From a virus: a DNA stretch of 64,000 nucleotides. Where the stretch lies: IMG/VR virus record IMGVR_UViG_3300032294_002710, positions 70,853 to 134,852 of that record; one strand, 5' to 3'. Below are positions 52,082 to 63,275 of this stretch, piece after piece (the first letter of the stretch is position 1; every line of letters begins with the position of its first letter). The notes under the pieces were generated by a model. It made no database searches, had not been told where the DNA came from, and worked only from the letters and a program-made list of their open reading frames with translations. Made by a program: the position numbers and the translations under genes.

Positions 52082-52166
52082 CATGAAAAAGAAAATTTGT
52101 ATTTTTATACAGAAAATAACTCTAAACAAGATTTGCTTAGGTTATTGTAAAAATTAATACTCACAC

Positions 52167-52241
52167 TGCGGGTGGGTGAAACGGAAAATCATTCCAGGCT
52201 CATAACCTGTGAGATACTTGGTTCGACTCCAGGACCCGCTA
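52167..52241 (+). tRNA. tRNA-Met(CAT), initiator-like
   Basis: Cloverleaf; loop ctCATaa; 1:72 mismatch. Confidence 0.8.
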
Positions 52242-52260
52242 CAAAAAAATTAAAAAAATA

Positions 52261-52291
52261 TTTGGAGATTTAAAAAATCTTCGTATATTTG
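52261..52291 (+). promoter_or_regulatory. Bacteroidota-type promoter of the Tyr/Glu tRNA operon
   Basis: TTTG-N19-TATATTTG. Confidence 0.8.
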
Positions 52292-52325
52292 TAAAACAAA
52301 ACAGAACAATTTAAAAATAGAAATC

Positions 52326-52406
52326 ATGGCAACTTTTGAAACATATTATTATGAAGCGTATGAGGAACACTCAGCGACTGGAGATACTATGTCTGTGAAA
52401 AGTTGA
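52326..52406 (+). CDS. Leader peptide 1 (MATFETYYYEAYEEHSATGDTMSVKS), Tyr/Glu attenuator
   Basis: 4 Tyr + 4 Glu in codons 5-14; lies between promoter and terminator. Confidence 0.85.
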   Translation: MATFETYYYEAYEEHSATGDTMSVKS

Positions 52407-52436
52407 TATGTAAGATATTAACTAAAAACACAAGTT

Positions 52437-52470
52437 AACCCAGTCAAAATCAAAATTGACTGGGTTTTTT
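52437..52470 (+). terminator. Attenuator terminator 1
   Basis: aacccagtcaa/ttgactgggtt + T run; 5' arm also complementary to leader gactgg (52376-81). Confidence 0.85.
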
Positions 52471-52484
52471 GTTTTAAAATATAT

Positions 52485-52578
52485 TGGGGTATAACGGTAG
52501 GGCATAGTAAGCGCCCGACAGAGTATATAAAACGCCGTATGGACTACCTGTGAGGAGGTTCGATTCCTTCTACTCCAA
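52485..52578 (+). tRNA. Non-canonical tRNA-Tyr(GTA)-like RNA, D-arm rewired
   Basis: Acceptor tggggta/tactcca, T-arm; degenerate anticodon arm with GTA; acggt pairs with gccgt. Confidence 0.5.
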
Positions 52579-52586
52579 CTAAATAT

Positions 52587-52658
52587 GGTCCCATCATCTA
52601 ATGGTTAGGATACAAGACTTTCAATCTTGAAATGCGGGTTCGATCCCCGTTGGGACTA
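52587..52658 (+). tRNA. tRNA-Glu(TTC)
   Basis: Cloverleaf; caaga-ctTTCaa-tcttg. Confidence 0.92.
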
Positions 52659-52667
52659 CAAAAATAT

Positions 52668-52751
52668 GGGAGAGTAACCGGTAACTGGTAGCCGCGCGGA
52701 CTGTAAATCCGCTCTCATTCGAGACTGGGGGTTCGAGTCCCTCCTCTCCCA
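52668..52751 (+). tRNA. tRNA-Tyr(GTA)
   Basis: gcgga-ctGTAaa-tccgc; long variable arm. Confidence 0.92.
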
Positions 52752-52756
52752 CAAAT

Positions 52757-52830
52757 GCTCTTGTCGTCTAACGGTAGGACTCCTGTTTTTCAAACAGATG
52801 TAGATGCGGGTTCGATTCCCGTCAAGAGTA
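52757..52830 (+). tRNA. tRNA-Glu(TTC)
   Basis: ctgt-ttTTCaa-acag. Confidence 0.85.
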
Positions 52831-52838
52831 CTAAATAT

Positions 52839-52932
52839 GGGATGTGTTGTCACAAGGGGTCTGTAAAACCCCTCTCCGTTAACAAAATTGTGACTGGTTT
52901 GGAGTTTAGAGGTTCGATTCCTTCATATCCCA
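52839..52932 (+). tRNA. Non-canonical tRNA-Tyr(GTA), D-arm rewired
   Basis: ggggt-ctGTAaa-acccc; no D hairpin; gtcacaa pairs with ttgtgac in the variable arm. Confidence 0.75.
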
Positions 52933-52940
52933 CTAAATAT

Positions 52941-53015
52941 GGTCCGTTCGTCTAGCCAGGTCTAGGACATCTCCCTTTCACGGAGAAGACACGGGTTCGA
53001 ATCCCGTACGGACTA
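52941..53015 (+). tRNA. tRNA-Glu(TTC)
   Basis: tctcc-ctTTCac-ggaga. Confidence 0.92.
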
Positions 53016-53021
53016 CAATAT

Positions 53022-53095
53022 GGCCCTGTCGTCTACGATGGCTAGGACATCACCCTCTCAAGGTGAAGAAGGCGGATCGACACCGCTCAGGGCTA
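53022..53095 (+). tRNA. tRNA-Glu(CTC)
   Basis: tcacc-ctCTCaa-ggtga; T-loop ATCGACA variant. Confidence 0.88.
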
Positions 53096-53098
53096 CAA

Positions 53099-53240
53099 AA
53101 ATATCAGGAGTACCTGTCGTAGAAAGTTAATTACTTTCCCTGATATTTATACAACTCAATGATGTAAGTGATTTTGGCAGTACCGACAGGAGGGTGAATT
53201 TAATTAGATTCTTTGGGGTTCGATTCCCACCATTGAGTTA
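53099..53240 (+). ncRNA. Two-module structured RNA (hairpin + tRNA-like unit)
   Basis: aaatatcagg/cctgatattt; aactcaatg/cattgagtt with GTTCGATT T-loop; cross-pairing cctgtcg/cgacagg. Confidence 0.5.
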
Positions 53241-53246
53241 TTTTAT

Positions 53247-53332
53247 TGGAAGGTGGCCGAGTGGTTAATGGCGGCAGACTGTAAATCTGCTCTCTTCGGA
53301 GTACGGGGGTTCGAATCCCTCCCTTCCAACCA
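53247..53332 (+). tRNA. tRNA-Tyr(GTA) with encoded CCA
   Basis: gcaga-ctGTAaa-tctgc; variable arm. Confidence 0.93.
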
Positions 53333-53371
53333 AGAAATTATAAAAAATTTCCTAAAATAAGAAATTTTTTA

Positions 53372-53379
53372 TATATTTG
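53372..53379 (+). promoter_or_regulatory. Bacteroidota-type -7 element
   Basis: TATATTTG. Confidence 0.5.
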
Positions 53380-53439
53380 TAAAGTAAATCAAATGTGGCT
53401 AAGTCCTATATGGCAAAAAGTTCATATTTTGATTTTTAT

Positions 53440-53526
53440 GGGAAAGTACCGAAGTGGTCAAACGGGCCTCAGTCGTAACTGGGGTGGCCTTAGGGTCTTC
53501 AGCGGTTCGAATCCGACTCTTTCCCA
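53440..53526 (+). tRNA. Class II tRNA with irregular anticodon loop (probably Tyr-derived)
   Basis: cctcag-tcgtaa-ctgggg gives a 6- or 8-nt loop; long variable arm; A73. Confidence 0.6.
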
Positions 53527-53593
53527 CTAAAATATTTATTAGGAGAGAAAAACTTTTTAATATATATTTATATAACTTAAAATAAAGATAAAA

Positions 53594-53671
53594 ATGAAAG
53601 CAGTTAATAACATATCAATCATAGGGAACGGCGCGATAGCGGGCGGTGGGCCCATTATGCTGATTGGATAA
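53594..53671 (+). CDS. Leader peptide 2 (MKAVNNISIIGNGAIAGGGPIMLIG), Ile/Gly/Ala attenuator
   Basis: 6 Ile (3 ATA), 6 Gly, 3 Ala in 25 codons; precedes terminator. Confidence 0.85.
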   Translation: MKAVNNISIIGNGAIAGGGPIMLIG

Positions 53672-53697
53672 GTTTTAACTCTTTCATTAAAGATACG

Positions 53698-53728
53698 AAC
53701 CCAGTCAGTAAATTGACTGGGTTTTTTT
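53698..53728 (+). terminator. Attenuator terminator 2
   Basis: aacccagtcag/ttgactgggtt + T run; 5' arm complementary to leader ctgattgg (53660-67). Confidence 0.85.
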
Positions 53729-53733
53729 ATTAT

Positions 53734-53814
53734 CGGCAGGTACCGTTGGATGCTTATATCATCTATACACGTAGCGGGAAGTTGAAAACGTGGGTTCGAA
53801 TCCCACCCTGCCGA
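53734..53814 (+). tRNA. Non-canonical tRNA-Ile(TAT), D-arm rewired
   Basis: cggcagg/cctgccg; ggatg-ctTATat-catct; ccgtt pairs with agcgg. Confidence 0.75.
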
Positions 53815-53816
53815 CA

Positions 53817-53890
53817 AACTCAAACTTGTGTTAACTCCTTGAGAGTGAAGTTGTGTACACAACAGGTTTATTCCCATAAGTCCCTGAGTT
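53817..53890 (+). ncRNA. Structured multibranch element in tRNA operon
   Basis: aactca/tgagtt, acttgtg/cataagt, actc/gagt, gttgt/acaac. Confidence 0.4.
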
Positions 53891-53893
53891 ATT

Positions 53894-53967
53894 GCAGAAG
53901 TGGTGTTTAATGGTTAGCATGTGAGACTTCCACTCTCAAGGTGCCGGTTCGAATCCGGTCTTCTGCT
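53894..53967 (+). tRNA. tRNA-Gly(TCC)
   Basis: tgaga-ctTCCac-tctca; U73. Confidence 0.92.
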
Positions 53968-53974
53968 CAGATAT

Positions 53975-54048
53975 GTCGATGACGCATAAATGGTGGTGCA
54001 CCTGATTGCCAATCAGGAATAGAGCCGGTTCGATCCCGGTTATCGACT
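53975..54048 (+). tRNA. tRNA-Gly(GCC)
   Basis: cctga-ttGCCaa-tcagg; U73. Confidence 0.88.
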
Positions 54049-54063
54049 CAGACTTTTCAATAT

Positions 54064-54101
54064 GCCGGAGGACTCCCTGTTAGTCCCAGGGTCCGGCTCC
54101 A
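54064..54101 (+). ncRNA. Acceptor-stem minihelix ending in UCCA
   Basis: gccgga/tccggc followed by t-cca. Confidence 0.35.
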
Positions 54102-54175
54102 GGGGCAGCATGTACCAAGGCTGGCGAAGATTTCTGGCAGAAATCTTGTGATGGATTCAATTTCCATCTGCTCCA
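54102..54175 (+). tRNA. tRNA-Ala(GGC), atypical D-arm, 7-bp anticodon stem
   Basis: G3:U70; aagattt-ctGGCag-aaatctt. Confidence 0.75.
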
Positions 54176-54184
54176 CAAAAATTA

Positions 54185-54259
54185 GGGGATGCATGTACTG
54201 AGGCTAAGCGAAAAGCACTTGCAATGCTTTTGATGTGATTTCGACTATCACCATCTCCA
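54185..54259 (+). tRNA. tRNA-Ala(TGC), atypical D-arm, 7-bp anticodon stem
   Basis: G3:U70; aaaagca-ctTGCaa-tgctttt. Confidence 0.78.
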
Positions 54260-54378
54260 CGAGTTCGATAGAGAAACTCTCCACTTTATGAATGATTTTG
54301 AAAATGTTTTACAAAGGAAGAAGAGTATTAGAAATCAAAAATATCTTGAAAGTCTTAAATAATTTCATATATTTGTAA

Positions 54379-54654
54379 AAATTAAATCTTATTGCCGCAG
54401 AAACAAATAGTAAATTACCTGGTCAATACTGGGAACAATTAAATAAACACGGATTACCTAACTATCTTTACTTAGGGGATGAATTAGTAATCGTTGACAG
54501 TATTGAGAAAAGAAAGAGAAAAAATGGCGCGAAAGTCGATCAGATATATTATATTCTGAGTGATGGTAGAGTAAAGCACGCATCTTTTTTCAAAAAGATT
54601 GATATAAAAGTAATAAAAAGAGATTATCTATTAAATAGTATCTTAAATGATTAA
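54379..54654 (+). CDS. Open frame without ATG/GTG/TTG start (non-canonical start or damaged gene)
   Basis: 91 sense codons after TATATTTG promoter; ends IKRDYLLNSILND overlapping tilS start. Confidence 0.5.
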   Translation, partial: KLNLIAAETNSKLPGQYWEQLNKHGLPNYLYLGDELVIVDSIEKRKRKNGAKVDQIYYILSDGRVKHASFFKKIDIKVIKRDYLLNSILND

Positions 54655-55234
54655 AGTCTTAGGTAAAATTCCTAAAGGTGAATTTGGACTTGCCTGTTCA
54701 GGTGGGGTTGATTCGATGGCTATTGCTAACTTTTTAGTTAATGGTGGTTACAATCCACATATTCTATACTTTAATCATAATACTGAACACGGAGATCTTG
54801 CCGAGAAGTTTGTAACTGAATATTGTCAGAGACATAATCTAAAACTCACAATTGGTAGAACTGATCTTAAACCTCAATCAAATAAAGAAAAGATTTGGAG
54901 TGATTTGAGATATGAGTTTTTCTCAAAATTTGATTTTCCTGTTATTACTTGCCATCATTTAGATGATTGTGTTGAGACTTACATTTTCTCTTGTCTTAGA
55001 GGATTTCAATCGGTTATTCCTTATTCTAAGGGTAATGTAATTCGCCCATTCCTATTGAATGAAAAATCACAATTTTATAAGTGGTGTGAGAATAAAGGAG
55101 TGCCTTTTATTGAGGATGAATCAAATTCATGTGTAGATTATTCAAGAAATCGTATTCGTCATAATATTGTTCCAGAGTCACTGTTGGTAAATCCTGGATT
55201 GAAAACTGTTGTTAAGAAGATGATTACTCTGTAA
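54647..55234 (+). CDS. tilS: tRNA(Ile)-lysidine synthetase, catalytic domain only
   Basis: PP-loop SGGVDSM, RY, HHLDDCVET, IRPFL, DESN..YSRNRIRH. Confidence 0.9.
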   Translation: MIKVLGKIPKGEFGLACSGGVDSMAIANFLVNGGYNPHILYFNHNTEHGDLAEKFVTEYCQRHNLKLTIGRTDLKPQSNKEKIWSDLRYEFFSKFDFPVITCHHLDDCVETYIFSCLRGFQSVIPYSKGNVIRPFLLNEKSQFYKWCENKGVPFIEDESNSCVDYSRNRIRHNIVPESLLVNPGLKTVVKKMITL

Positions 55235-56267
55235 AGTAGATATAGAACTGTTTACAATTTTCCCTATTTGGTACATAGTCTAATTTGGTTTTAAATCCTT
55301 CAGATTTAAAGTAAGATACAATTTCTTCTATTACTGAATTAACTTCATCTAAGATAATTTTGTGTCTAGAAAACCCAGAATCATTTTTTAATGCTCCTGA
55401 TATCCAAACATAAGGATCATTTTGGGTCCACCAAATATGATGCCTATAAATACTATTGCTATCTTTAAGATCTAGTAATATATCATTAACACTTTTTTCA
55501 ATTTCTCTTCTAATTGGGCTTTCAGGTCGGCACCAGTCATATTTATATTGTGGTTTACTGATACTCTCATTGATTTGATCATCCTTCTCATAGAATTCTA
55601 TAATAATGAAGTCACCTTTAAATCCATAATTCATTATATCTGGTTGGGAAATACTTTTTTGATGTTTTAATTGTGGTTCGATCCATTTTTTGAATTCCTC
55701 AATACTATTTAAAGTAATTTCCTCTTCTTTTGTTACGTTATCACTTGTTAAGAAAATTTTATACTCATAATCCTCCATATATCTCACAATATTTTCCAAA
55801 TATTGAATTAGTGTATCATTTATCCGACCACCTCTATCATTAATCCCTGGAGTGTTCCAATCAAATTCATCTAATGGTTCAAGAATAACTTTACAAGAAT
55901 ATTCATCTTCATTATACTTTTCAGTATTTGTATGAATAGTTATACTCCATTCACCTTCATCTTGTAAATCTAAAGATAAATCTTTTAGATGTTCAGAATC
56001 TTCATCTATATTGAATGATTCATTTAGATTTTCATACCATTCTTGTCCTTTGTAATAATGATTCCAAGGTTTAAAATCAGACTTTTTTAATTCTCTTCCA
56101 ACTCTTTTTTCTAAACAAGAAACACAGATATACTTATTTTGTTTAGATTTAGGTATGTATTTTGACCACCCTTCAAACCAATAGTCTTCTGGAAATTTAC
56201 CACAATCAGCACATTCTGCCCATTTAGGTTTTTTATTAAAATCTTCAAATATTTTTAAGTATTTCAT
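55224..56267 (-). CDS. Modular protein with capsid-targeting-like N-terminus and zinc finger
   Basis: MKYLKIFEDF; CADC..CVSC; internal LNES and INES. Confidence 0.7.
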   Translation of the reverse strand: MKYLKIFEDFNKKPKWAECADCGKFPEDYWFEGWSKYIPKSKQNKYICVSCLEKRVGRELKKSDFKPWNHYYKGQEWYENLNESFNIDEDSEHLKDLSLDLQDEGEWSITIHTNTEKYNEDEYSCKVILEPLDEFDWNTPGINDRGGRINDTLIQYLENIVRYMEDYEYKIFLTSDNVTKEEEITLNSIEEFKKWIEPQLKHQKSISQPDIMNYGFKGDFIIIEFYEKDDQINESISKPQYKYDWCRPESPIRREIEKSVNDILLDLKDSNSIYRHHIWWTQNDPYVWISGALKNDSGFSRHKIILDEVNSVIEEIVSYFKSEGFKTKLDYVPNRENCKQFYIYFTE

Positions 56268-56705
56268 TTATATACTGTATTTTATACCAATTTGCCTTAC
56301 GGTTGTATCTATCCATTTAGGATTTAGCAAATCATCAATACTCATATCAAGGCCTGTATTGAGATTGCTATGTATCCAAATTTTGGATATTTTACCACCT
56401 ATTGACTCTATGTAACTTTTAGAAGATAATAATGTGTTTATTATTTCTGATGGTTTAAATAATGATGGTTTGTAGTTTACCCAATCTTCAATTTCTTCAC
56501 CCGTTTCATCATCAATTTTATATGTAATTAAAGATTTTTTTGAAATACTTACATCGATATAGTTGAAGTGTTTATGATGTATATTCTGTGGAACTACTCT
56601 TACATCAAATTCTTCACTTATTTCAGAGTAAATATCTTTAATATATTCAATCATCTCTTCAATTTCCGAAGGTTCGTATGACTCGAATTTTTTTAAGTAT
56701 TTCAT
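56268..56705 (-). CDS. Hypothetical protein, paralog of 57415
   Basis: MKYLKKFESY; YIKDIYSEISEEF, SSKSYIESIGGKISKIW. Confidence 0.75.
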   Translation of the reverse strand: MKYLKKFESYEPSEIEEMIEYIKDIYSEISEEFDVRVVPQNIHHKHFNYIDVSISKKSLITYKIDDETGEEIEDWVNYKPSLFKPSEIINTLLSSKSYIESIGGKISKIWIHSNLNTGLDMSIDDLLNPKWIDTTVRQIGIKYSI

Positions 56706-57415
56706 AAAGGATCTTGAATTACTTCACCATTTTTATCTAATAGTTTAAACTCTTTTGGTTCAAAATAATTATTAGTATATGTTACTTCTCCCTTATTATT
56801 CTTCAGTCTAATATCACCTCCAAATCCAGTATATTTATCAACCAGACCCTTGTGTTCTTGTCCATCTATTGTGAATTCTGCGAATACTTCACCATTTTTA
56901 ATTCTATCTTTAAATAACTTTTTTCTGTATATTACTTCTGGATCTTTTAGATATTTCAACTTTTGCTCTTGATCCTTTATCTTTTTATCCTGTATAGTTG
57001 TTAATTCGGATAATAGTATTTCATATTTACCAGTCTTTTCATCAAATTGACCAATTGAATAGTGTGTATTATTTTTAACTGGTTCAGTAGTTTGACAATG
57101 AACTTTAGGTCCTCTATTTGTTACAAAGTTCCAATGGTCTGATACACGATATGATTTATCAGGCTTAGATTCCCAAGATATATCATCTGACGAATAAAAC
57201 GATTTAGAGTAAGGTGATTTATATATAATCGGCCATTCCTTCATCATTTCTATAATTGAATCTGGAATTCCAAATTGAGATAGTTCTTCTGGTTGATATA
57301 TTTTACCTGTTGGACTTGGATTGTTTTTATGCCAAAGTTCATTTCTAAGTTGTCTTTTACTTTTAACAACCTCTTCACCGCTTTCAAAATCTTCAAATAG
57401 TTTTAAGAATCTCAT
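56702..57415 (-). CDS. Hypothetical protein (RVSDHW motif)
   Basis: MRFLKLFEDF; KSPYSKSFY, YRVSDHWNF. Confidence 0.7.
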   Translation of the reverse strand: MRFLKLFEDFESGEEVVKSKRQLRNELWHKNNPSPTGKIYQPEELSQFGIPDSIIEMMKEWPIIYKSPYSKSFYSSDDISWESKPDKSYRVSDHWNFVTNRGPKVHCQTTEPVKNNTHYSIGQFDEKTGKYEILLSELTTIQDKKIKDQEQKLKYLKDPEVIYRKKLFKDRIKNGEVFAEFTIDGQEHKGLVDKYTGFGGDIRLKNNKGEVTYTNNYFEPKEFKLLDKNGEVIQDPL

Positions 57416-57873
57416 TATAGTATATATTCTATATTAATTTGTACTAAATCTCCGAGATCTGAATGACGATTTAAAAACTCATCAAAACTTAGAGTTATAC
57501 CATCATTTGGATTTGATATATGTAACCATACTTTGGATATTTCACCATCAACTGATTCGATATAACTTTTTGATGTTAGTATTAATTCCATCACTTCGTC
57601 TATTTTAAAAGTAGCTTGTTTAAATTTTGACCAATCATCTGTACCATCCGACTTTTTAAACTCTGGCGATTCCTTGAATATGTTTATGCCTATTGAAGAG
57701 GATTTCCAATTGTGTGTATTTGTGTTATAAGATTTTATATTAAAATCATCTGATATTTCGGAGAAAATATCTTTTAAGTAATCAGACACTTCCTTAAATT
57801 CTTTATCATTAGTTGATTGATGATGGCTTTTTTTGAAGTCATCAAACATTTCAAATAGTTTTAAATATCTCAT
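57415..57873 (-). CDS. Hypothetical protein, paralog of 56268
   Basis: MRYLKLFEMF; YLKDIFSEISDDF, TSKSYIESVDGEISKVW. Confidence 0.75.
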   Translation of the reverse strand: MRYLKLFEMFDDFKKSHHQSTNDKEFKEVSDYLKDIFSEISDDFNIKSYNTNTHNWKSSSIGINIFKESPEFKKSDGTDDWSKFKQATFKIDEVMELILTSKSYIESVDGEISKVWLHISNPNDGITLSFDEFLNRHSDLGDLVQINIEYIL

Positions 57874-57909
57874 TTTTTATATATTAAAAAATCAATTATA
57901 TTTGTAGTT

Positions 57910-58281
57910 ATGATATATGAGTTCTTTACAGATAAAACAACTGGACCACTTACTAATTTTCTAAGTAGTTTGGCTAACATGCCCACTCTGAAGATGCTAG
58001 ATTACACTCTATTAGAGTATCATACACTTGATGTTAAAGAGTATGGTGTTAAGAGGTTTACTTTTGGATATGAAGGTAATACATTTAAGTTTTACTTATC
58101 AAAAAGTGATACTATTGGTTTATCATTTGAGGATAATACCATGCCACATACTGGTGCATTTCATCATTTTAGACTCTATTATACTGGAAACTCAATTAAT
58201 AATTACAAGGTTAATGACGAGATTAGGCAATATTTGTTATCTTTTGTAAGAGATTATAAATTGAGTCAAATAGTAAAATAA
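57910..58281 (+). CDS. Hypothetical protein
   Basis: TATATTTG at 57897; C-terminal RDYKLSQIV. Confidence 0.65.
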   Translation: MIYEFFTDKTTGPLTNFLSSLANMPTLKMLDYTLLEYHTLDVKEYGVKRFTFGYEGNTFKFYLSKSDTIGLSFEDNTMPHTGAFHHFRLYYTGNSINNYKVNDEIRQYLLSFVRDYKLSQIVK

Positions 58282-58282
58282 A

Positions 58283-58314
58283 TTTGGAAGATTAAACTTT
58301 AATACATATATTTG
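58283..58314 (+). promoter_or_regulatory. Bacteroidota-type sigma-A promoter
   Basis: TTTG-N20-TATATTTG. Confidence 0.7.
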
Positions 58315-58400
58315 TAAAATAATAATAACATATCATTTTTCTTTGATCAAAAGGTGGAGAAAAAATTTTCAAAGAAATTTGAAAAAAAAAGAAAAAAGAT

Positions 58401-59225
58401 ATGAAAAATGAAAAAGATAGCCTCGGCAACCGCATGAAGGCTTACGAAAACCAAACCTGTGGAATCAAAATGCTTCCACTTATCCCTGTAATCGCTCGTC
58501 TTGATGGTAAGGGATTCTCTAAATTTACTAAAGGTCTTAAACGACCTTATGATGAAAGGCTTTCAAATCTTATGATTGAAACCACAAAGTATCTTGTAAA
58601 AGAAACTAATGCTAATTGTGGTTACACTCAAAGTGACGAAATCACTCTTATGTGGTACTCTGATAGTCATGAGTCAAAAATCTACTTTGATGGTAGACTT
58701 TTCAAAATGATTTCAGATCTTGCTTCAATGGGTTCTGTATTCTTCAATTCTAAACTTGCTGAATACATTCCTGAGAAGAAAGATAAAATGCCAAGATTCG
58801 ATTGTCGAGTTTGGAATGTTCCGAATGTAGATGAAGCCGTGAATGTTTTTTACTGGAGAGAAAAAGATGCAACCAAGAACTCTATTACAATGGCTGCTTC
58901 TGAATACTACTCACACAATTTCCTTATGGGTAAGAATGGTTCTGAAAAACAAGAATTACTTTTCCAAAAAGGTGTAAACTGGAATGATTATCCATCTTTC
59001 TTTAAAAGAGGTAGTTACATTCAAAGAAAGCGAGTTGTAAGTAAGTTTAGCAGTGAAGAACTTGAGAGACTTCCACTTAAACACAAGGCAAGACTTAATC
59101 CAGATCTTGAAATCGAAAGATGGGTTATTGATCGTGTAGAACTTCCACCACTCTCAACTATTGAGAATAAAGTTGGTGTGATTGTATATGGTGAAGATGT
59201 GAAAATTAAAAGTCCAGTTTTTTAA
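58401..59225 (+). CDS. Thg1-like tRNA(His) guanylyltransferase / 3'-5' polymerase
   Basis: RMKAYE, RLDGKGFSKFT, YTQSDEI, FDCR, WREKDATKNS. Confidence 0.92.
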   Translation: MKNEKDSLGNRMKAYENQTCGIKMLPLIPVIARLDGKGFSKFTKGLKRPYDERLSNLMIETTKYLVKETNANCGYTQSDEITLMWYSDSHESKIYFDGRLFKMISDLASMGSVFFNSKLAEYIPEKKDKMPRFDCRVWNVPNVDEAVNVFYWREKDATKNSITMAASEYYSHNFLMGKNGSEKQELLFQKGVNWNDYPSFFKRGSYIQRKRVVSKFSSEELERLPLKHKARLNPDLEIERWVIDRVELPPLSTIENKVGVIVYGEDVKIKSPVF

Positions 59226-59237
59226 CTGGACTTTTTT
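59208..59237 (+). terminator. Intrinsic terminator
   Basis: aaaagtccagtt/aactggactttt + T run. Confidence 0.7.
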
Positions 59238-59266
59238 ATATATATTTGTAAAACTAATTTTCAAAA

Positions 59267-59590
59267 ATGAAACATATTTCCGGAATTAATGAGTCTTTTA
59301 AAGACAGAAGAAGAAAAGAAATTGAGGCAGAAATTGCTAGAAAACAAAAAGAACTTGATGAATTGCAAAATTCTGAAAATGATGCAGTAATTGAGTTAAG
59401 TGATTATACAACAGAAGATAAAGTTAAGTTCTTTGATAGGATGTATAAGATGGCCGCAGAACACTTACAAAGTGCTGAGGATGGTCGTGTAGATGATGAT
59501 GCTGAACATTGGTTTTTTGAGGAAGGATTTGGAATTTTGAACCTAAAAGACAAAAGAAAACTTTGGAATTTCTATAATGAACTTATTTAA
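59267..59590 (+). CDS. Hypothetical protein
   Basis: MKHISGINESF. Confidence 0.7.
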   Translation: MKHISGINESFKDRRRKEIEAEIARKQKELDELQNSENDAVIELSDYTTEDKVKFFDRMYKMAAEHLQSAEDGRVDDDAEHWFFEEGFGILNLKDKRKLWNFYNELI

Positions 59591-59595
59591 CTACT

Positions 59596-59970
59596 ATGAT
59601 AATAAAAAAATTTAATGAATCTGTTGAAAGTCCTAAAGTAAGACTTGCAGAATATTGTGAACTTGAAGGTGATTGTAATAATTACGATCTATATGAGCTT
59701 TTTAAACAACACACTGGAATTGAATTAGAGTTTGAGGCTGGTCAAGAATATGGAACAGGTTGTTATGGGCTAATTAGATTTATGGATAATAATCCCAAAT
59801 CTACTTATAGATTTTATCCTACTCTAGAAGAATTAGAAGATAAGATTCAAAAATATAAAGATAAAAAACTTGGTAAATATGAATATATCACTGCCAATGA
59901 TATAGTAAACTACTTTAGAAGAAAGGGAATTCTACCTGAAAAAGATTTTCTATTTAACGTTGACTATTAA
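59596..59970 (+). CDS. Hypothetical protein
   Basis: MIIKKFNES. Confidence 0.7.
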   Translation: MIIKKFNESVESPKVRLAEYCELEGDCNNYDLYELFKQHTGIELEFEAGQEYGTGCYGLIRFMDNNPKSTYRFYPTLEELEDKIQKYKDKKLGKYEYITANDIVNYFRRKGILPEKDFLFNVDY

Positions 59971-60029
59971 TGTGTAATTTCAAACTTTATTAGAAACTTT
60001 ATATACAAATAAAAACTAAATTAAATAAA

Positions 60030-60452
60030 ATGATTAAAGAAGGTAGTAAAGTTAAAGCCCATTATACTGGTCGTTTAACGAATAATGATGTTTTTGACAC
60101 ATCGTTGAGAGATGGTCGTGAGCCATTAGAGTTTGTAGTTGGTGAAGGATCACTTATTCCAGGATTTGAAAATGGTATAATGGGTTTGTCTAAAGGAGAC
60201 AAGAAAACTGTAAATATACCACCATCTGAAGCTTATGGGGAATACAGACAAGATTTGTGCTTAACAGTTCCAAAGACTAATGTGCCACCTGGTATTCAAG
60301 TTGGACAAACACTTCAAGCTAATACAGATGGTCAAATGGTTCCATTTATTGTTAGAGAAGTGATGGAGAATGAAGTTATTGTTGATGCGAATCATCCATT
60401 AGCTGGTCAAGAATTGATTTTTGATATTGAAATTGTAGATATTGAAAATTAA
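60030..60452 (+). CDS. FKBP-type peptidyl-prolyl isomerase (SlyD-like)
   Basis: HYTG, FDTS, LIPGFE, AYG, DANHPLAG. Confidence 0.93.
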   Translation: MIKEGSKVKAHYTGRLTNNDVFDTSLRDGREPLEFVVGEGSLIPGFENGIMGLSKGDKKTVNIPPSEAYGEYRQDLCLTVPKTNVPPGIQVGQTLQANTDGQMVPFIVREVMENEVIVDANHPLAGQELIFDIEIVDIEN

Positions 60453-60483
60453 TTTGGAAGTTAAAAAAACTTCCTTATATTTG
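60453..60483 (+). promoter_or_regulatory. Bacteroidota-type sigma-A promoter
   Basis: TTTG-N19-TATATTTG. Confidence 0.75.
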
Positions 60484-60489
60484 TAAAAT

Positions 60490-60567
60490 AAAACAGAGAA
60501 CTCCGGTATGGTCTCAATCATTACTCAGAACCGGGCTTCGGAGAGTTACAAGTTGAGACTCTGTTTT
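60490..60567 (+). ncRNA. Candidate pseudoknotted small RNA
   Basis: aaaacagag/ctctgtttt, aactc/gagtt, ccggt/accgg, crossing gtctcaa/ttgagac. Confidence 0.5.
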
Positions 60568-60587
60568 TAAAAAAAAATTAAAAAATA

Positions 60588-60618
60588 TTTGAAAGATTAA
60601 AACTTTTTCATATATTTG
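60588..60618 (+). promoter_or_regulatory. Bacteroidota-type promoter of the third tRNA operon
   Basis: TTTG-N19-TATATTTG. Confidence 0.8.
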
Positions 60619-60663
60619 TATAAAATAACACAAAGAGACAAAAACTTTTTAATATATAAAAAA

Positions 60664-60777
60664 ATGAGAACAATGAATCTAAATATCACAAATTTGAACC
60701 TCACAATGGTGGTGAATAATACATTATGTATTAGAACCGCTGGTTCGGGTTGTGCAAAATTTGGATTTATCTCGTGA
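60664..60777 (+). CDS. Leader peptide 3 (MRTMNLNITNLNLTMVVNNTLCIRTAGSGCAKFGFIS), multi-amino-acid attenuator
   Basis: First 25 codons use only M,R,T,N,L,I,V,C, the set of downstream tRNAs. Confidence 0.88.
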   Translation: MRTMNLNITNLNLTMVVNNTLCIRTAGSGCAKFGFIS

Positions 60778-60804
60778 TGAATTGATATAATCCAAAAAAG
60801 ATAC

Positions 60805-60840
60805 AAACCCGAACCGTAAAAAGTTCGGGTTTTTTGTTTT
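60805..60840 (+). terminator. Attenuator terminator 3
   Basis: aaacccgaac/gttcgggttt + T run; 5' arm has a perfect 10-nt complement ggttcgggtt (60742-51) in the leader. Confidence 0.88.
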
Positions 60841-60844
60841 ATAC

Positions 60845-60919
60845 GCTCCCGTAGCCCAATTGGCAGAGGCAACAGACTTAAACCCTGTACAGGTATCGGT
60901 TCGAATCCGATGGGGAGTA
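60845..60919 (+). tRNA. tRNA with anticodon TAA (Leu), short variable region
   Basis: acaga-ctTAAac-cctgt. Confidence 0.75.
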
Positions 60920-60967
60920 CAAAAAGAGAAGGTGACATATCGCACTCTGAAAATGCGAAATGGTAAT

Positions 60968-61051
60968 GCCCAGGTGGTGGAATTGGTAGACACCCCGGTC
61001 TAAGAAGCCGGTGTCCGTAAGGACGTGAGAGTTCGAGTCTCTCCTTGGGTA
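60968..61051 (+). tRNA. tRNA-Leu(AAG)
   Basis: ccggt-ctAAGaa-gccgg; variable arm. Confidence 0.88.
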
Positions 61052-61119
61052 CGAAAGTTTTTAACCCCTTCCAGATATTTCCGCTGTTGTCTGGAAGGGG
61101 TGGAGACAAGGATTAAAAT

Positions 61120-61202
61120 ACCTTTGTGGCGAAATTGGTAGCACGCGCTGGTCTTAGAAACCAGTTCCGAAAGGAGTGTCGGTTCGAATCCGACTAAAGG
61201 TA
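61120..61202 (+). tRNA. tRNA-Leu(TAG)
   Basis: ctggt-ctTAGaa-accag. Confidence 0.92.
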
Positions 61203-61208
61203 CAAAAT

Positions 61209-61281
61209 GGTCTCTTCGTCCAACTGGACAGGACATCGGTCTTCTAAACCGAGGATATGGGTTCGAATCCCGTAGGGACTA
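61209..61281 (+). tRNA. tRNA-Arg(TCT)
   Basis: tcggt-ctTCTaa-accga. Confidence 0.9.
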
Positions 61282-61287
61282 CTAAAA

Positions 61288-61372
61288 GGATGGGTTGCTT
61301 TAGAGGCCGAAAAGTCTGGACTGTTAATCCAGTGTCGCAAGACCACCGTGGGTTCGAATCCCACCCTGTCCT
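61288..61372 (+). tRNA. tRNA-Asn(GTT) with long variable arm
   Basis: ctgga-ctGTTaa-tccag; gtc-gcaa-gac arm. Confidence 0.8.
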
Positions 61373-61385
61373 CAAAATTATATAC

Positions 61386-61472
61386 TGGCAGTTGGCCGAG
61401 AGGACGATGGCAGTGGACTGTTAATCCACCGTAGCGAAAGCTCCAACATAGGTTCGAATCCTATACTGTCAG
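61386..61472 (+). tRNA. tRNA-Asn(GTT) with long variable arm
   Basis: gtgga-ctGTTaa-tccac; agc-gaaa-gct arm; G73. Confidence 0.85.
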
Positions 61473-61483
61473 CTAACAAAATA

Positions 61484-61565
61484 CGGCAAGTACCAGCCCA
61501 TCCTGATAAGATGGAGAACTGTAGTTGGTATGTTGAAAACGTGGGTTCGAGTCCCACCTTGCCGA
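61484..61565 (+). tRNA. Non-canonical tRNA-Ile(GAT), D-arm rewired
   Basis: cggcaag/cttgccg; ccatc-ctGATaa-gatgg; taccagc pairs with gttggta. Confidence 0.78.
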
Positions 61566-61575
61566 CAAAGGATTA

Positions 61576-61649
61576 GCCTCCTTAGCTTTAATTGGTAGAG
61601 CACCTGACTTGTAATCAGGGGGTTGTCGGTTCGAGTCCGGCAGGAGGCT
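61576..61649 (+). tRNA. tRNA-Thr(TGT)
   Basis: cctga-ctTGTaa-tcagg. Confidence 0.93.
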
Positions 61650-61656
61650 CATATAT

Positions 61657-61739
61657 AGGAATAGTAATTGAAAGAGATACTTCGATCAAACTTCTAATTT
61701 GGCAACGAAACCAAAAACTCTTTTAAGATTTTCTTTCCT
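61657..61739 (+). ncRNA. Y-RNA-like RNA copy C
   Basis: agga/tcct, tagtaat, ttgaaagag/ctcttttaa, ATACTTCG motif. Confidence 0.55.
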
Positions 61740-61743
61740 TTAT

Positions 61744-61826
61744 GCACAGGTGGTAGAGTGGCGAATGCAACGGCCTGCAAAGCCGTAGTCGAAAGACCAT
61801 CGGGGGTTCGAGTCCCTCCCTGTGCT
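61744..61826 (+). tRNA. tRNA-Cys(GCA) with long variable arm
   Basis: acggc-ctGCAaa-gccgt; gtc-gaaa-gac arm; U73. Confidence 0.87.
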
Positions 61827-61832
61827 CAACTT

Positions 61833-61903
61833 GCCCCGGTGGCGTAATGGGAGCGTACTTGTTTTACATGCAAGTGGCAGTGGTTCGAATCCACTTCGGG
61901 GTA
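61833..61903 (+). tRNA. tRNA-Val(TAC)
   Basis: cttgt-ttTACat-gcaag. Confidence 0.87.
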
Positions 61904-61910
61904 CTAAAAT

Positions 61911-61984
61911 TGGAATATAGCTCAGTTGGTTAGAGCAATTCGCTGATACCGAATAGGTCGCTGGTTCGAGTCCAGCTATTCCAA
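61911..61984 (+). tRNA. tRNA-Ile(GAT)
   Basis: attcg-ctGATac-cgaat. Confidence 0.92.
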
Positions 61985-61989
61985 CAAAA

Positions 61990-62103
61990 ATGTATGGTGA
62001 TTAAAAGTGTTACTTCGTGAAATGGTTAACACAATTGTTTTAAACACAATTATTTACTGGTTCGAATCCAGTAGTATAAACCACTTTTAAACCTTTCCTA
62101 CAT
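61990..62103 (+). ncRNA. Y-RNA-like RNA copy D with tRNA-like domain (YrlA-type architecture)
   Basis: atgta/tacat, ttaaaagtg/cacttttaa, TTACTTCG, then D-arm, anticodon-like arm and T-arm actgg-TTCGAAT-ccagt. Confidence 0.7.
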
Positions 62104-62108
62104 TTAAT

Positions 62109-62193
62109 GCCGATGTGGCTCAGTGGCGACAGCACCGGTTTTGTAAACCGGAGACGATTTAGTCCAGCGGGGGTTCGAGTCCCTCCATCGGCT
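62109..62193 (+). tRNA. tRNA-Thr(TGT) with long variable arm
   Basis: ccggt-ttTGTaa-accgg. Confidence 0.85.
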
Positions 62194-62195
62194 CA

Positions 62196-62303
62196 ATGAA
62201 TGTGTGAATGCACGATAAACTAAAACGGCACCAGCGGAGACTGGAGTGGATATTGGAAACACATAACCACCACAAATGTAGGAGAATACCCTACCACATT
62301 CAT
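62196..62303 (+). ncRNA. tRNA-like structured RNA of unknown type
   Basis: atgaatgtg/cacattcat acceptor-like stem; gtagg-agaatac-cctac T-like arm; ccag/ctgg and gtgg/ccac hairpins. Confidence 0.5.
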
Positions 62304-62308
62304 CAAAT

Positions 62309-62382
62309 AGTCTTGTAGCTCAGTTGGTTAGAGCGTTTGGTCGACATCCAAAAGGTCATCGGTTCGAATCCGGTCAGGACTA
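62309..62382 (+). tRNA. tRNA-Val(GAC)
   Basis: tttgg-tcGACat-ccaaa (C33). Confidence 0.88.
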
Positions 62383-62387
62383 CAAAA

Positions 62388-62459
62388 GCCAATGTCGTAT
62401 AACGGCAATTACACACCGTTGGTATCGGTGAGACACCAGTTCAACTCTGGTCTTTGGCT
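62388..62459 (+). tRNA. tRNA-Thr(GGT)
   Basis: caccg-ttGGTat-cggtg. Confidence 0.85.
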
Positions 62460-62464
62460 CAAAT

Positions 62465-62554
62465 GCCTCAGTGGCGAAACTGGTTGAAACGCCTTAGTCT
62501 TAGGAACTAAGACCCAAGTGGTAAACGTTGTCGGTTCGAATCCGACCTGAGGTA
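62465..62554 (+). tRNA. tRNA-Leu(TAG)
   Basis: ttagt-ctTAGga-actaa; variable arm. Confidence 0.9.
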
Positions 62555-62571
62555 CAAAAAATATAATAAAA

Positions 62572-62775
62572 ATGGCAAAGTGGTATAACATAGTTAAAAG
62601 ATATAAAGGTGAATCTAAGAGTCACAAGAGATTTTATTCTTCCAGAGATATGATGGAGTTAAAAAGAATGATATCAGTTGCAAACTCGGAGGCTAAAAGA
62701 GGTTTGAGAAAACCTTATAAAGGAATCTCACCTTGTGGATGTGGAATGGAAGGATGTTTCATTTTGTATTCATAA
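62572..62775 (+). CDS. Small basic protein inside tRNA operon
   Basis: 67 aa between tRNAs; CGCGMEGC. Confidence 0.55.
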   Translation: MAKWYNIVKRYKGESKSHKRFYSSRDMMELKRMISVANSEAKRGLRKPYKGISPCGCGMEGCFILYS

Positions 62776-62780
62776 AAAAT

Positions 62781-62865
62781 GCCGAAATGGCGGAACTGGT
62801 AGACGCGCCGGCCTCAAAAGCTGGTGTCCTTAAAGGACGTGTGGGTTCGAGTCCCACTTTCGGTA
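62781..62865 (+). tRNA. tRNA-Leu(CAA)
   Basis: ccggc-ctCAAaa-gctgg; variable arm. Confidence 0.92.
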
Positions 62866-62870
62866 CAAAT

Positions 62871-62942
62871 GGCGATATGGTGTAACGGCAAGCTCACATG
62901 GCTCATATCCTTGAGGACCAGGTTCGATTCCTGGTATCGCTA
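62871..62942 (+). tRNA. tRNA(CAT), elongator Met or Ile2
   Basis: catgg-ctCATat-ccttg. Confidence 0.8.
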
Positions 62943-63005
62943 CCTTGAATTTTTTTAAAAATAAACCAAGATGGAGAAATTGTGATATAAAAATGAAATT
63001 TAAAA

Positions 63006-63275
63006 ATGGAATCAAACGAAGTAAAAAAAGAGTTATTGAAAAACAAAACAGTTGCTAAACTGAGTCACTATTGTGCTGGGAATTTATATTATCAAGTTCA
63101 ATTAGAATCTGGTTTATATCAATTTCCAATATCAACAATAGAATCTGAGTGTGAAGTTATTTCTTTATCTTCTGATCTTGGTACAACTCAGTTTGATTCT
63201 GAAATCAAGGCTTCATTTTTAAATAGATGGATTGATAAGGCTATTAAGAGTTCTGAATTTATAAAAGTTAATTAA
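63006..63275 (+). CDS. Hypothetical protein
   Basis: 89-aa ORF; GNLYY, YQFPI, DLGTT. Confidence 0.7.
   Translation: MESNEVKKELLKNKTVAKLSHYCAGNLYYQVQLESGLYQFPISTIESECEVISLSSDLGTTQFDSEIKASFLNRWIDKAIKSSEFIKVN

Follow-up and report, generated by a model that had tools for sequence, protein, structure and literature searches.

Multivalent leader-peptide attenuators of amino-acid operons include trpL, hisL, leuL, thrL and the ilvGMEDA leader, and in E. coli the pheM leader attenuator controls pheST, which encodes phenylalanyl-tRNA synthetase. The phage modules described here resemble the attenuators of amino-acid operons in having a short ORF with regulatory codon runs, an intrinsic terminator, a mutually exclusive antiterminator that would depend on ribosome position, and several amino acids per leader. 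They differ in that they would regulate tRNAs and not enzymes, so that the regulated product would be the sensed molecule and would feed back directly on the sensor, in that there are seven to eight paralogous modules per genome that cover nearly all amino acids, and in that some of the leaders lie within a tRNA precursor transcript. With pheM they would share leader-peptide attenuation of a component of the translation apparatus and not of biosynthesis, but pheM controls a synthetase, serves a single amino acid and resides in a cellular genome. T-box riboswitches also attenuate transcription and report the state of a specific tRNA, but a T-box binds uncharged tRNA directly without translation whereas the phage codon runs are in frame inside ORFs. 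The trn operon of Anabaena PCC 7120 is a long, stress-induced accessory tRNA array that is reported to be silent until translation is impaired (PMC8421152, PMC10272220), as the phage arrays would be. It is reported to be under the protein repressor TrcR (ribbon-helix-helix) and not a leader peptide (PMC10272220) and, unlike the phage arrays, it is one array unsorted by amino acid.

The phage leaders had no sequence match in curated Rfam families; in a cmscan of 51800-63100 with E up to 1 there were 27 matches to tRNA, the 7 to other families were sub-threshold, and none of them was to a T-box or an amino-acid-operon leader. Leader-peptide control of tRNA genes is not described in the literature that we searched, megaphage papers included, and within that literature this would be the first leader-peptide attenuation of tRNA genes. 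Ribosome-mediated attenuation of the trp/ilv type is of a known kind; its use on tRNA genes would be new. It is a long-standing question for what reason phages carry tRNAs and what controls their expression, and here the genome itself points to the probable signal for each tRNA block.

Layout of the three modules

The window, that is, the whole stretch of 64,000 nt that was analysed, has 28 tRNAs by ARAGORN, which are the complete tRNA set of the 134,852-bp contig. They are grouped as two Met, Glu/Tyr (52587-53332), Gly/Ala (53894-54260), and a 17-tRNA block of Leu, Arg, Asn, Thr, Cys, Val, Ile and Met (60845-62944). The two Met tRNAs, at 52010-52242, are without a leader. Three short ORFs are present. 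In each of the three modules an intrinsic terminator lies 24-30 nt beyond the ORF and the tRNAs come next, without a promoter motif between terminator and tRNAs. There are 14 terminator-like sites in 50000-64000 compared to 7.4 +/- 2.9 in shuffled sequences. The features are as follows.

Module 1 (Glu/Tyr)
52261-52291, plus strand: promoter 1 (motif match by regex), with TTTG at -33 (52261-52264) and TATATTTG at -7 (52284-52291)
52326-52406, plus strand: leader ORF 1, 26 aa, MATFETYYYEAYEEHSATGDTMSVKS, with homologues in 5 other contigs
52375-52398, plus strand: predicted antiterminator 5' strand 1, whose GACTGG core pairs with CCAGTC in the terminator 5' arm
52431-52475, plus strand: intrinsic terminator 1, with a core stem at 52437-52466 and then a T-run
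52485-53332, plus strand: array 1, Glu(ttc) x3, Glu(ctc) and Tyr(gta) x2 by ARAGORN, and two tRNA-like units
Module 2 (Ile/Gly/Ala)
53551-53570, plus strand: conserved motif AACTTTTTAATATATA, overlapped by TATATTTA, before leader 2
53594-53671, plus strand: leader ORF 2, 25 aa, MKAVNNISIIGNGAIAGGGPIMLIG, from ORF scan and codon analysis
53660-53668, plus strand: predicted antiterminator 5' strand 2, CTGATTGG, which pairs with CCAGTCAG
53697-53728, plus strand: intrinsic terminator 2, hairpin (53697-53724) and T-run
53734-54260, plus strand: array 2, tRNA-like Ile(TAT), Gly(tcc), Gly(gcc), Ala(ggc) and Ala(tgc)
Module 3 (large eight-amino-acid block)
60588-60618, plus strand: promoter 3 (motif match by regex), with TTTG at -33 (60588-60591) and TATATTTG at -7 (60611-60618)
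60664-60777, plus strand: leader ORF 3, 37 aa, MRTMNLNITNLNLTMVVNNTLCIRTAGSGCAKFGFIS, starting at ATG and not at the listed upstream TTG
60742-60752, plus strand: predicted antiterminator 5' strand 3, GGTTCGGGTTG, which pairs with AAACCCGAAC in the terminator 5' arm
60805-60841, plus strand: intrinsic terminator 3, hairpin (60805-60832) and T-run
60845-62944, plus strand: array 3, Leu x6 (taa, aag, tag, taa, tag, caa), Arg(tct), Asn x2, Thr x3, Cys, Val x2, Ile(gat) and Met

The motifs of promoter 1 are those of a putative Bacteroidota-type promoter. The first-pass annotation had given all three modules the order promoter, ORF, terminator and tRNAs. The ORF, terminator and tRNAs are there in all three and promoter motifs precede leaders 1 and 3, but leader 2 has only TATATTTA, and the closest canonical promoter motif is at 53372-53379. 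The AACTTTTTAATATATA/TATATTTA region before leader 2 is possibly a promoter or an initiation signal; the AACTTTTTAATATATA motif is also found downstream of promoter 3 (60643-60658). Some units in the arrays are unusual. The two tRNA-like units of array 1 that were missed by ARAGORN (about 52485-52578 and 52836-52935) have GTA in their loops, the Ile(TAT) unit of array 2 (53734-53814) is atypical and tRNA-like, Ala(ggc) at 54105-54176 was detected only at a lower ARAGORN threshold, and an atypical Ile(GAT)-like unit lies near 61485-61567 in array 3. A canonical Ile(tat) occupies the same array position as the Ile(TAT) unit in the public megaphages LR745206.1 and LR756502.1.

Codon match in the window and in related phages

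The control codons of leader 1 are codons 5-14 (52338-52367), of which 8/10 are Glu or Tyr; those of leader 2, codons 7-19 (53612-53650), are rich in Ile, Gly and Ala and include three ATA; and those of leader 3, codons 2-25 (60667-60738), specify solely the eight amino acids of array 3. When the whole 134,852-bp contig was scanned in all six frames, a single one of 137,455 stop-free windows had eight or more of its 10 residues in {E,Y}, and it was leader 1; likewise, one of 71,246 windows was made up wholly (25/25 residues) of {C,I,L,M,N,R,T,V}, namely, leader 3. These two unique stretches are each immediately upstream of their own array. Four clusters contig-wide have seven or more of 9 residues in {A,G}, and leader 2 is one of these. 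In a 3x3 leader-by-array matrix every leader scored highest with its own array. The earlier observation, that each ORF is rich in the codons of its own array, is confirmed.

In all, 10 phage contigs, the two megaphages among them, carry 34 such modules. We analysed 31 of the modules, on 7 contigs, the other three being on 3 further contigs; modules across genomes are homologous, and counts over the 31 are not independent. Seven modules each are found in a 476-kb IMG/VR record, LR756502.1 and LR745206.1, the set being Phe/His/Trp/Lys, Arg/Ser, Glu/Tyr, Ile/Gly/Ala, the large block, Asp/Pro and Gln. In each of these three genomes the true leader-array pairing gave the highest diagonal sum of all 5,040 permutations, and the own array was top-scoring in 5/7, 6/7 and 5/7 rows. 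All 31 modules have an ATG ORF of 16-38 codons, a distance of 22-36 nt from stop to stem, and a terminator with a hairpin of -9 to -18 kcal/mol and a run of at least 4 T, and in none of the 31 is there a TAnnTTTG motif between the terminator and the first tRNA. In 19 of them the first ARAGORN tRNA is 8-24 nt (under 30 nt) past the stem end. Isolated tRNAs in the 476-kb relative (Leu/Arg, Met and Cys singles) are without a leader.

Leaders are altered where arrays merge or split. In L005 a Tyr/Glu/Gly array is fused and its leader reads ...AAYEGAYGYEG..., and in L005 and L011 a separate Leu(tag/gag or aag/caa) and Met array has its own leader with CTA/TTG/CTT and ATG, while the large-block leaders of these two have Leu as TTA only and zero Met. 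The Asp/Pro leaders also contain Gln codons, and a Gln leader without a promoter lies directly downstream with its array. Arg codons track the anticodon: CGC/CGA go with Arg(acg), AGA with Arg(tct), and AGG/AGA occur only given Arg(cct). The check proposed with the first-pass annotation, whether in related phages the codons of a leader vary together with the anticodons of the array behind it, was run and co-variation was found. At the level of isoacceptors overall the match was 200 against 189 expected, barely above codon usage, and 14/214 codons for cognate amino acids, for example AGT Ser and CCT Pro, are unread by the anticodons that ARAGORN called. Whole-peptide binomial tests were weak for some modules (0.17-0.24 for G1_EY, G1_DP and G1_big (array truncated)).

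Alternative pairings and ribosome position

Folding placed the antiterminator strand immediately 3' of the cognate-codon run in 27/31 modules. With the A-site on control codons the terminator 5' arm is predicted to be paired upstream with a probability of at least 0.6 in 30/31 modules. In 27/31 this probability is predicted to halve no more than two codons to either side of where the control run ends. Folding with ribosome position, also proposed earlier as a check, has the antiterminator forming on the control codons and lost near the run end in these 27. The peptides past the control run diverge completely among homologues and the pairing is retained. Arm pairing was 0.83 against 0.53 in dinucleotide shuffles, the G+C-rich arm pairing with a probability of about 0.53 even in shuffled sequence; it was above the shuffle mean in 31/31 modules and in the top 5% in 19/31. 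Antiterminator duplexes were more stable with the cognate terminator than with that of a homologue (-10.4 vs -8.6 kcal/mol, Mann-Whitney p 0.004), the gain being clearest in the large-block, Leu/Met and Phe/His/Trp/Lys families. A simple duplex test was strong (z <= -2.9) in only 8/17 modules.

In the window, the pairing probability observed for module 2 was reached by 0/100 shuffles, and leader 3 has z -4.9 against shuffles, co-variation inside its family, and a fold with the complete 1:2, 2:3 and 3:4 alternatives. The weakest antiterminators are those of the Glu/Tyr family, in which 0.14-0.42 of shuffles were at least as good, and leader 1 belongs here with z -1.7 in the duplex test and 0.17 of shuffles at least as good in pairing. 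All three window leaders have the candidate anti-antiterminator (1:2) pairing in their minimum-energy folds at full length. In ribosome-free truncated folds the arm-paired probability ranged from 0.10 to 1.00 across modules, with leader 3 at 1.00, and termination was not consistently predicted. It had been claimed that the end of each ORF, through its stop codon, begins the hairpin. The strand is predicted to pair with the terminator 5' arm in all three, but it ends 6, 1 and 23 nt ahead of the stop in leaders 1, 2 and 3, and the stop codon of leader 3 is within the enclosed hairpin and not at the antiterminator start. The stop codon of leader 1 is likewise within the enclosed hairpin in the predicted fold.

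Proposed mechanism and its alternatives

The anatomy of the modules, their codon-array specificity, the geometry and co-variation of the predicted alternative pairings, and conservation on at least 10 phage contigs are read from sequence and comparison, and we infer leader translation, stalling and regulated readthrough. The earlier reading by the logic of trp/his/thr-type attenuation is supported, with a cognate-codon ATG ORF, a terminator and a predicted ribosome-dependent antiterminator present and conserved in relatives. We propose that the modules are, with high probability, transcription attenuators of the ribosome-mediated (leader-peptide) type and act as gates on phage tRNA operons, and that the phage probably makes each tRNA set only while ribosomes read the matching codons slowly. 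Transcription would start at a Bacteroidota-type promoter, or run on from an upstream tRNA block, and a ribosome would translate the short leader. When charged cognate tRNAs are ample the ribosome would clear the control run, move over the antiterminator strand and reach the stop; the terminator hairpin would then form, and transcription would stop ahead of the tRNAs. When any cognate tRNA is scarce the ribosome would stall on the control run, the strand just downstream would pair with the terminator 5' arm, and RNA polymerase would enter the array. Since the array products would be the sensed tRNAs, each array would act as a multivalent negative-feedback supply loop for its set of amino acids, and separate regulation of each array would explain why tRNA genes are sorted by amino acid in these phages. 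The trigger may be host tRNA depletion, a mismatch in codon usage or a nuclease defence. Starvation for amino acids would open the gate as well, to no use.

It is likely that a large freshwater/subsurface phage clade has in this way an amino-acid-resolved tRNA supply homeostat, in which seven to eight leaders would time codon groups and gate the cognate arrays, with serial gates possible and re-coding on merge or split. The logic may reach cultured phages because 2/3 of the tRNA blocks of phiCbK show it. If true, this would be a general and so far undescribed phage way to sense and repair the host tRNA pool. The modules would be compact natural sensors of codon-specific decoding speed, possibly of use as reporters, and it would become directly testable, possibly in phiCbK with Caulobacter, whether phage tRNAs stand in for host tRNAs that are depleted or cleaved, as has been hypothesized.

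That the attenuators evolved mainly to replace host tRNAs cut by anticodon-nuclease defences, and not for routine supply and demand, seems to us a speculative and doubtful purpose; such defences were named as an example in the first-pass annotation. Circumstantially, tRNA-related enzymes, a PP-loop ATPase and a Thg1-like protein, are encoded between the arrays, and cleaved tRNAs would make ribosomes stall at just these codons, but the modules of relatives span nearly all amino acids, beyond the known nuclease targets, and a homeostatic role explains this without any defence. It is very unlikely that the modules are real and translated but sense general translation capacity or transcription-translation coupling and not particular tRNAs. 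Any slow ribosome would yield the same structural outcome, and the leaders have a common N-terminal M-x-N-[IL]-N-x-N/I module irrespective of their array; the control runs, however, are array-specific and change with array content down to Arg and Leu isoacceptors, for which a general sensor would have no need. An RNA-only switch, in which the untranslated codon run contacts tRNA anticodons in the style of a T-box specifier or the region binds a protein, is highly improbable. The ribosome-binding signal is not verifiable for a Bacteroidota-type host and anticodon pairing by the repeated cognate triplets is conceivable in principle, but in 31/31 modules these triplets are in one frame from the ATG to a stop 22-36 nt ahead of the stem, divergent homologues in DNA of 30% G+C retain open frames of 16-38 codons, and a match to a T-box or other cis-regulatory family is absent at E up to 1. 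The least credible explanation is that the ORFs are small functional peptides or chance frames and the hairpins common leaky terminators, or insulators that separate transcription units, for, although similar AACCCAGTCA-type terminators are found elsewhere, for example at 51067-51097, the enriched stretches are unique genome-wide, the true pairing ranks 1/5,040 in each of three genomes, the C-terminal halves of the peptides are unconserved while the pairing is conserved, and in 19/31 modules tRNAs follow 8-24 nt past the stem with no promoter motif in between.

tRNA arrays and leader ORFs in the window

ARAGORN placed 28 tRNA genes in the window, all on the + strand, and Rfam agreed on 27 of them. 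These are every tRNA of the 134,852-bp contig, whose G+C content is 29.9%. The tRNA blocks, the ORFs that precede them and the terminator hairpins, which are G+C-rich, end in a T-run and lie 24-30 nt past each leader ORF, are listed here.

tRNA blocks (ARAGORN), leader ORFs and terminators
52010-52242, + strand: Met pair
52326-52406, + strand: leader 1, ATG ORF before the Glu/Tyr block, peptide MATFETYYYEAYEEHSATGDTMSVKS
52437-52466, + strand: terminator hairpin past leader 1
52587-53332, + strand: Glu/Tyr block
53594-53671, + strand: leader 2, ATG ORF before the Gly/Ala block, peptide MKAVNNISIIGNGAIAGGGPIMLIG
53697-53724, + strand: terminator hairpin past leader 2
53894-54260, + strand: Gly/Ala block
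60664-60777, + strand: leader 3, ATG ORF before the 17-gene block, peptide MRTMNLNITNLNLTMVVNNTLCIRTAGSGCAKFGFIS
60805-60832, + strand: terminator hairpin past leader 3
60845-62944, + strand: 17-gene block of only Leu, Arg, Asn, Thr, Cys, Val, Ile and Met tRNAs

The first-pass annotation had assigned all three arrays the order promoter, short ORF, intrinsic terminator and tRNAs. The ORF, the terminator and the tRNAs were found in all three, whereas leader 2 is without the full promoter motif. The -33 TTTG and -7 TATATTTG motifs, which we take to be the Bacteroidota promoter type, are upstream of leaders 1 and 3; leader 2 has only TATATTTA upstream and is preceded by a tRNA-like unit with the canonical motif at 53372-53379. 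The Met pair and the isolated tRNAs have no leader. Leader 2 is also rich in Ile, including three ATA codons, and the first unit past its terminator (53734-53814), which was missed by ARAGORN, recurs in two relatives, where compensatory changes are seen in the stem that holds its loop, CTTATA[T/C], which gives the anticodon TAT. A canonical Ile(tat) is at the equivalent position in the megaphage records LR745206.1 and LR756502.1. Ala(ggc) at 54105-54176 was gained at a lower ARAGORN threshold.

The possibility that such leaders arose by chance was tested by scanning all six frames of the contig for composition-restricted stop-free windows. At least eight Glu/Tyr in 10 residues occurred in one of 137,455 stop-free windows, and that one is leader 1; a 25-residue window made solely of the eight amino acids of array 3 occurred in one of 71,246, and that one is leader 3; at least seven Gly/Ala in nine residues occurred at four places in the contig, leader 2 among them. 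When the three leaders were scored against the three arrays in a matrix of enrichment z-scores, each leader gave its top score with its own array. The proposal that each ORF is rich in the codons of its own array is thus borne out, leaders 1 and 3 being unique contig-wide. Isoacceptor matching overall (200 of 214 codons for the arrays' amino acids against 189 expected, with 14 unread by the called anticodons) is barely over codon usage and hence was used solely for the Arg and Leu sub-cases described below, and whole-peptide statistics are unimpressive for some modules. A chance origin was rejected because the Glu/Tyr and eight-amino-acid stretches are unique in the contig and the true leader-array pairing tops the permutations. 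The tRNA-array leader feature in the window is real.

Related modules and co-variation of leaders with arrays

A search with the Thg1-like protein (58401-59225; Pfam Thg1), whose gene lies between the arrays, gave 25 viral loci. In four close relatives (73-77% identity) the arrays are sorted in the same way and the leaders are homologous. One locus is from a 476,236-bp record that has 59 tRNA matches and further modules in its other clusters.

Further modules of the 476-kb record, five of its seven: leader, then tRNAs past the terminator
MRTNNTHKHFSKSNKWFSNQF...: Phe, His, Phe, Trp, Lys x4
...SKSSSSRSS...: Arg(acg), Ser x3
...NPQPQVVIDQDP...: Asp x4, Pro
MRTTTQYQQQQQINPTD: Gln x3
large-block leader: large mixed block

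[quoted passage not shown] Except for these two unannotated records, the nearest annotated phages by DNA showed similarity at the tRNA level only. A 16-mer motif scan of IMG/VR gave at least 80 loci, and the motif-ORF-terminator-tRNA module was present in four of the matches listed, one being the 476-kb record again and three being further contigs; the 16-mer is AT-rich and its matches are mostly due to chance. The total is at least 34 modules on at least 10 contigs, and 31 modules on 7 contigs were analysed. In the more distant carriers of the Thg1-like protein (loci L006/L007 and L013) tRNAs are present and the pipeline search did not find the leader/terminator module; the system as found here is limited to a clade.

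The distance from the stop codon to the terminator stem is 22-36 nt (median 26) in 31/31 modules. The first ARAGORN tRNA begins within 30 nt of the stem end in 19 of the 31; most of the others have a tRNA-like unit in the interval. Since none of the 31 has the motif TAnnTTTG on the way from terminator to first tRNA, the arrays would be reachable only by terminator readthrough. Of 22 leaders examined, 15 have TAnnTTT[G/A] 14-56 nt 5' of the ATG and the remaining ones directly follow a tRNA, and the latter would therefore be internal gates within a longer transcript.

In each of three seven-module genomes the true leader-array pairing gave the highest diagonal sum of 5,040 permutations, and the own array was top-scoring in 5/7, 6/7 and 5/7 rows; these genomes are related and so the three tests are not independent. 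Rearrangements of the arrays are more telling. In the related locus L005 the Tyr, Glu and Gly arrays are fused and the leader reads ...AAYEGAYGYEG.... Both L005 and a second relative, L011, have a separate array of Leu(tag), Leu(gag or aag), Leu(caa) and Met behind its own leader, M[RK]N[RI]NLNMNLLNLM..., which uses the codons CTA, TTG, CTT and ATG, and in their large-block leaders TTA, matching Leu(taa), is the sole Leu codon and Met does not occur. The large-block leader of L005 has AGA/AGG Arg codons and its array has an Arg(cct) gene, neither of which is in L011. The Arg/Ser leader has CGC and CGA with Arg(acg), while large-block leaders have AGA with Arg(tct). In LR756502.1 a leader contains W, and the Trp tRNA that seemed absent from the array was recovered at a lower ARAGORN threshold. 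Leader codons in the related phages thus track array fusions and splits and the Arg and Leu anticodons, the co-variation that the first-pass annotation had proposed as a check.

Serial gating was supported for Asp/Pro to Gln only; the Glu/Tyr leaders show no enrichment for Ile/Gly/Ala. In three compared loci (L028 1293-2323, L034 1459-2870 and L035 1704-3120) the Asp/Pro leaders also hold 3-4 Gln codons, and a promoter-less Gln leader with its terminator and array is immediately 3' of the Asp/Pro module, an arrangement that suggests two gates in series. Contigs of four DNA runs showed population variants only. Among the variants listed, three are in leader ORFs, one changing codon 2 from Ala to Thr and two synonymous, a number too small to be used.

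The predicted switch and its interpretation

In the full-length fold of leader 3 the control region pairs with the next segment and the terminator is formed, and when the fold ends before the 3' arm GGUUCGGGUUGUG pairs with CAAACCCGAACC; these predicted folds are the classical 1:2, 2:3 and 3:4 alternatives. The effect of a ribosome was modelled by restricting the fold, at each leader position, to RNA that starts 15 nt beyond the A-site and ends at the terminator loop, on 31 modules and also in a 17-module run (17/17). With the A-site on the control run, the terminator 5' arm was paired upstream with a probability of at least 0.6 in 30/31 modules. In 27/31 this probability fell by half no further than ±2 codons from the last control codon; in these modules the predicted antiterminator is lost near the end of the control run, as had been proposed for a ribosome moving on to the stop codon. 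Mean arm pairing was 0.83 against 0.53 in dinucleotide shuffles of the upstream RNA, and the observed value was above the shuffle mean in 31/31 modules and in the top 5% in 19/31; for window leaders 1, 2 and 3 shuffles equalled or exceeded the observed value in a fraction of 0.17, 0.00 and 0.00. A simple duplex test was strong in just 8/17 modules, the Glu/Tyr antiterminators are weak on folding, and termination in an untranslated leader was not consistently predicted. Within families, pairing with the module's own terminator (-10.4 kcal/mol) was stronger than with the terminator of a homologue (-8.6 kcal/mol; p 0.004), the advantage being greatest where the terminators differ, as for GGACGGGATT/AAATCCCGTC in L005 and GGACAGGATT/AAATCCTGTTC in L011. 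The peptides of homologues are unrelated past the control run, as expected if this segment is constrained as RNA.

These sequences and modelled folds are most simply read as tRNA operons under multivalent ribosome-mediated attenuation. The gate would open when any control codon is decoded slowly, and the tRNAs then produced would shut it again. That the ORFs encode small functional peptides was rejected because the peptide ends past the control run are unrelated in homologues while the pairing is kept. A T-box-like RNA was rejected since Rfam gave no match to T-box, nor to amino-acid-operon leader families, at E up to 1. Attenuation, the mechanism suggested in the first-pass annotation, is the best-supported explanation on the basis of the array-matched leaders, the predicted switch and the co-variation in relatives. 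Its usual trigger may be a codon-usage mismatch, a loss of host tRNAs as infection proceeds, or cleavage by nucleases of the host defence.

The phage modules follow the same logic as the trp, his, thr and ilv leaders, whose defining features, as far as tested, were found in them with the exception of the 1:2 element, for which the folds did not agree. The phage modules differ from these leaders in the regulated genes, which are tRNAs, in the viral setting, in the number of paralogous modules per genome and in having gates within tRNA precursor transcripts. Control of tRNA genes by a leader peptide was not described in the open full-text literature covered, main texts only, and 'attenuat' and 'leader' had 0 matches each in the covered text of the megaphage papers PMC7162821 and PMC9723777. 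The nearest conditionally expressed tRNA array found in print is the Anabaena trn operon, which, from the part of the paper covered, is controlled by the repressor TrcR (PMC10272220).

In Caulobacter phage phiCbK (JX100813.1; 46800-52800) an ORF enriched for the amino acids of the block is upstream at two of three annotated terminators preceding tRNA blocks: gp083, rich in S, L, P and K, before Pro, Pro, Lys, Lys, Leu x3 and Ser x2, and an ORF with ...YRQFVRQIQVVRNI... before Phe, Val, Ile, Ile, Val, Gln and Gln. A matching ORF was not found for the third terminator-preceded block (Glu, Asp). Being cultured, phiCbK is a possible experimental model.

Other features of the tRNA region

Four tRNA-like units (~52485-52578, 52836-52935, 53734-53814 and ~61485-61567) missed by ARAGORN at default have normal acceptor and T arms and seem to be without a normal D arm; GTA (Tyr), TAT and GAT (Ile) are the triplets in their anticodon loops, and their stems have compensatory changes in relatives. 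At 53440-53525 is an 86-nt tRNA-like gene, to which ARAGORN assigns the four-base anticodon cgta when its threshold is lowered; it has a promoter motif of its own (53372-53379) and no leader. Asn, Cys and Thr tRNAs of 84-88 nt (61288-61373, 61386-61473, 61744-61827 and 62109-62194) have long extra arms, which are unusual for these tRNAs.

In all relatives the motif AACTTTTTAATATATA precedes many leader ATGs at a distance of 6-27 nt. With up to two mismatches allowed it matches at 8 sites in the window against 1.1 expected, at 53551-53566, at 60643-60658 and at six more with two mismatches. This motif may act as a second type of promoter or as an initiation signal and could imply near-leaderless mRNAs. 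Just 5' of module 3, at 60476-60567, a promoter motif (60476-60483) is followed by a structured RNA of ~80 nt that closes with a hairpin and T-run (fold -20.5 kcal/mol; no Rfam match).

The genes between the arrays, 54647-55234, 58401-59225 and 60030-60452, code for a PP-loop ATPase, a family that includes tRNA-modifying enzymes, the Thg1-like tRNA-His guanylyltransferase and an FKBP-type prolyl isomerase. On the minus strand at 55224-57873 are four adjoining ORFs (347, 145, 237 and 152 aa), each starting with M-[KR]-[YF]-L-K-x-F-E, and N-termini related to this one occur in the ORFs at 50596-51048 (+ strand) and at 50040-50522. Within array 3, between Leu(tag) and Leu(caa), is a K/R-rich ORF of 67 aa (62572-62775; no Pfam match), whose position is the site of the separate Leu/Met leader in L005 and L011.
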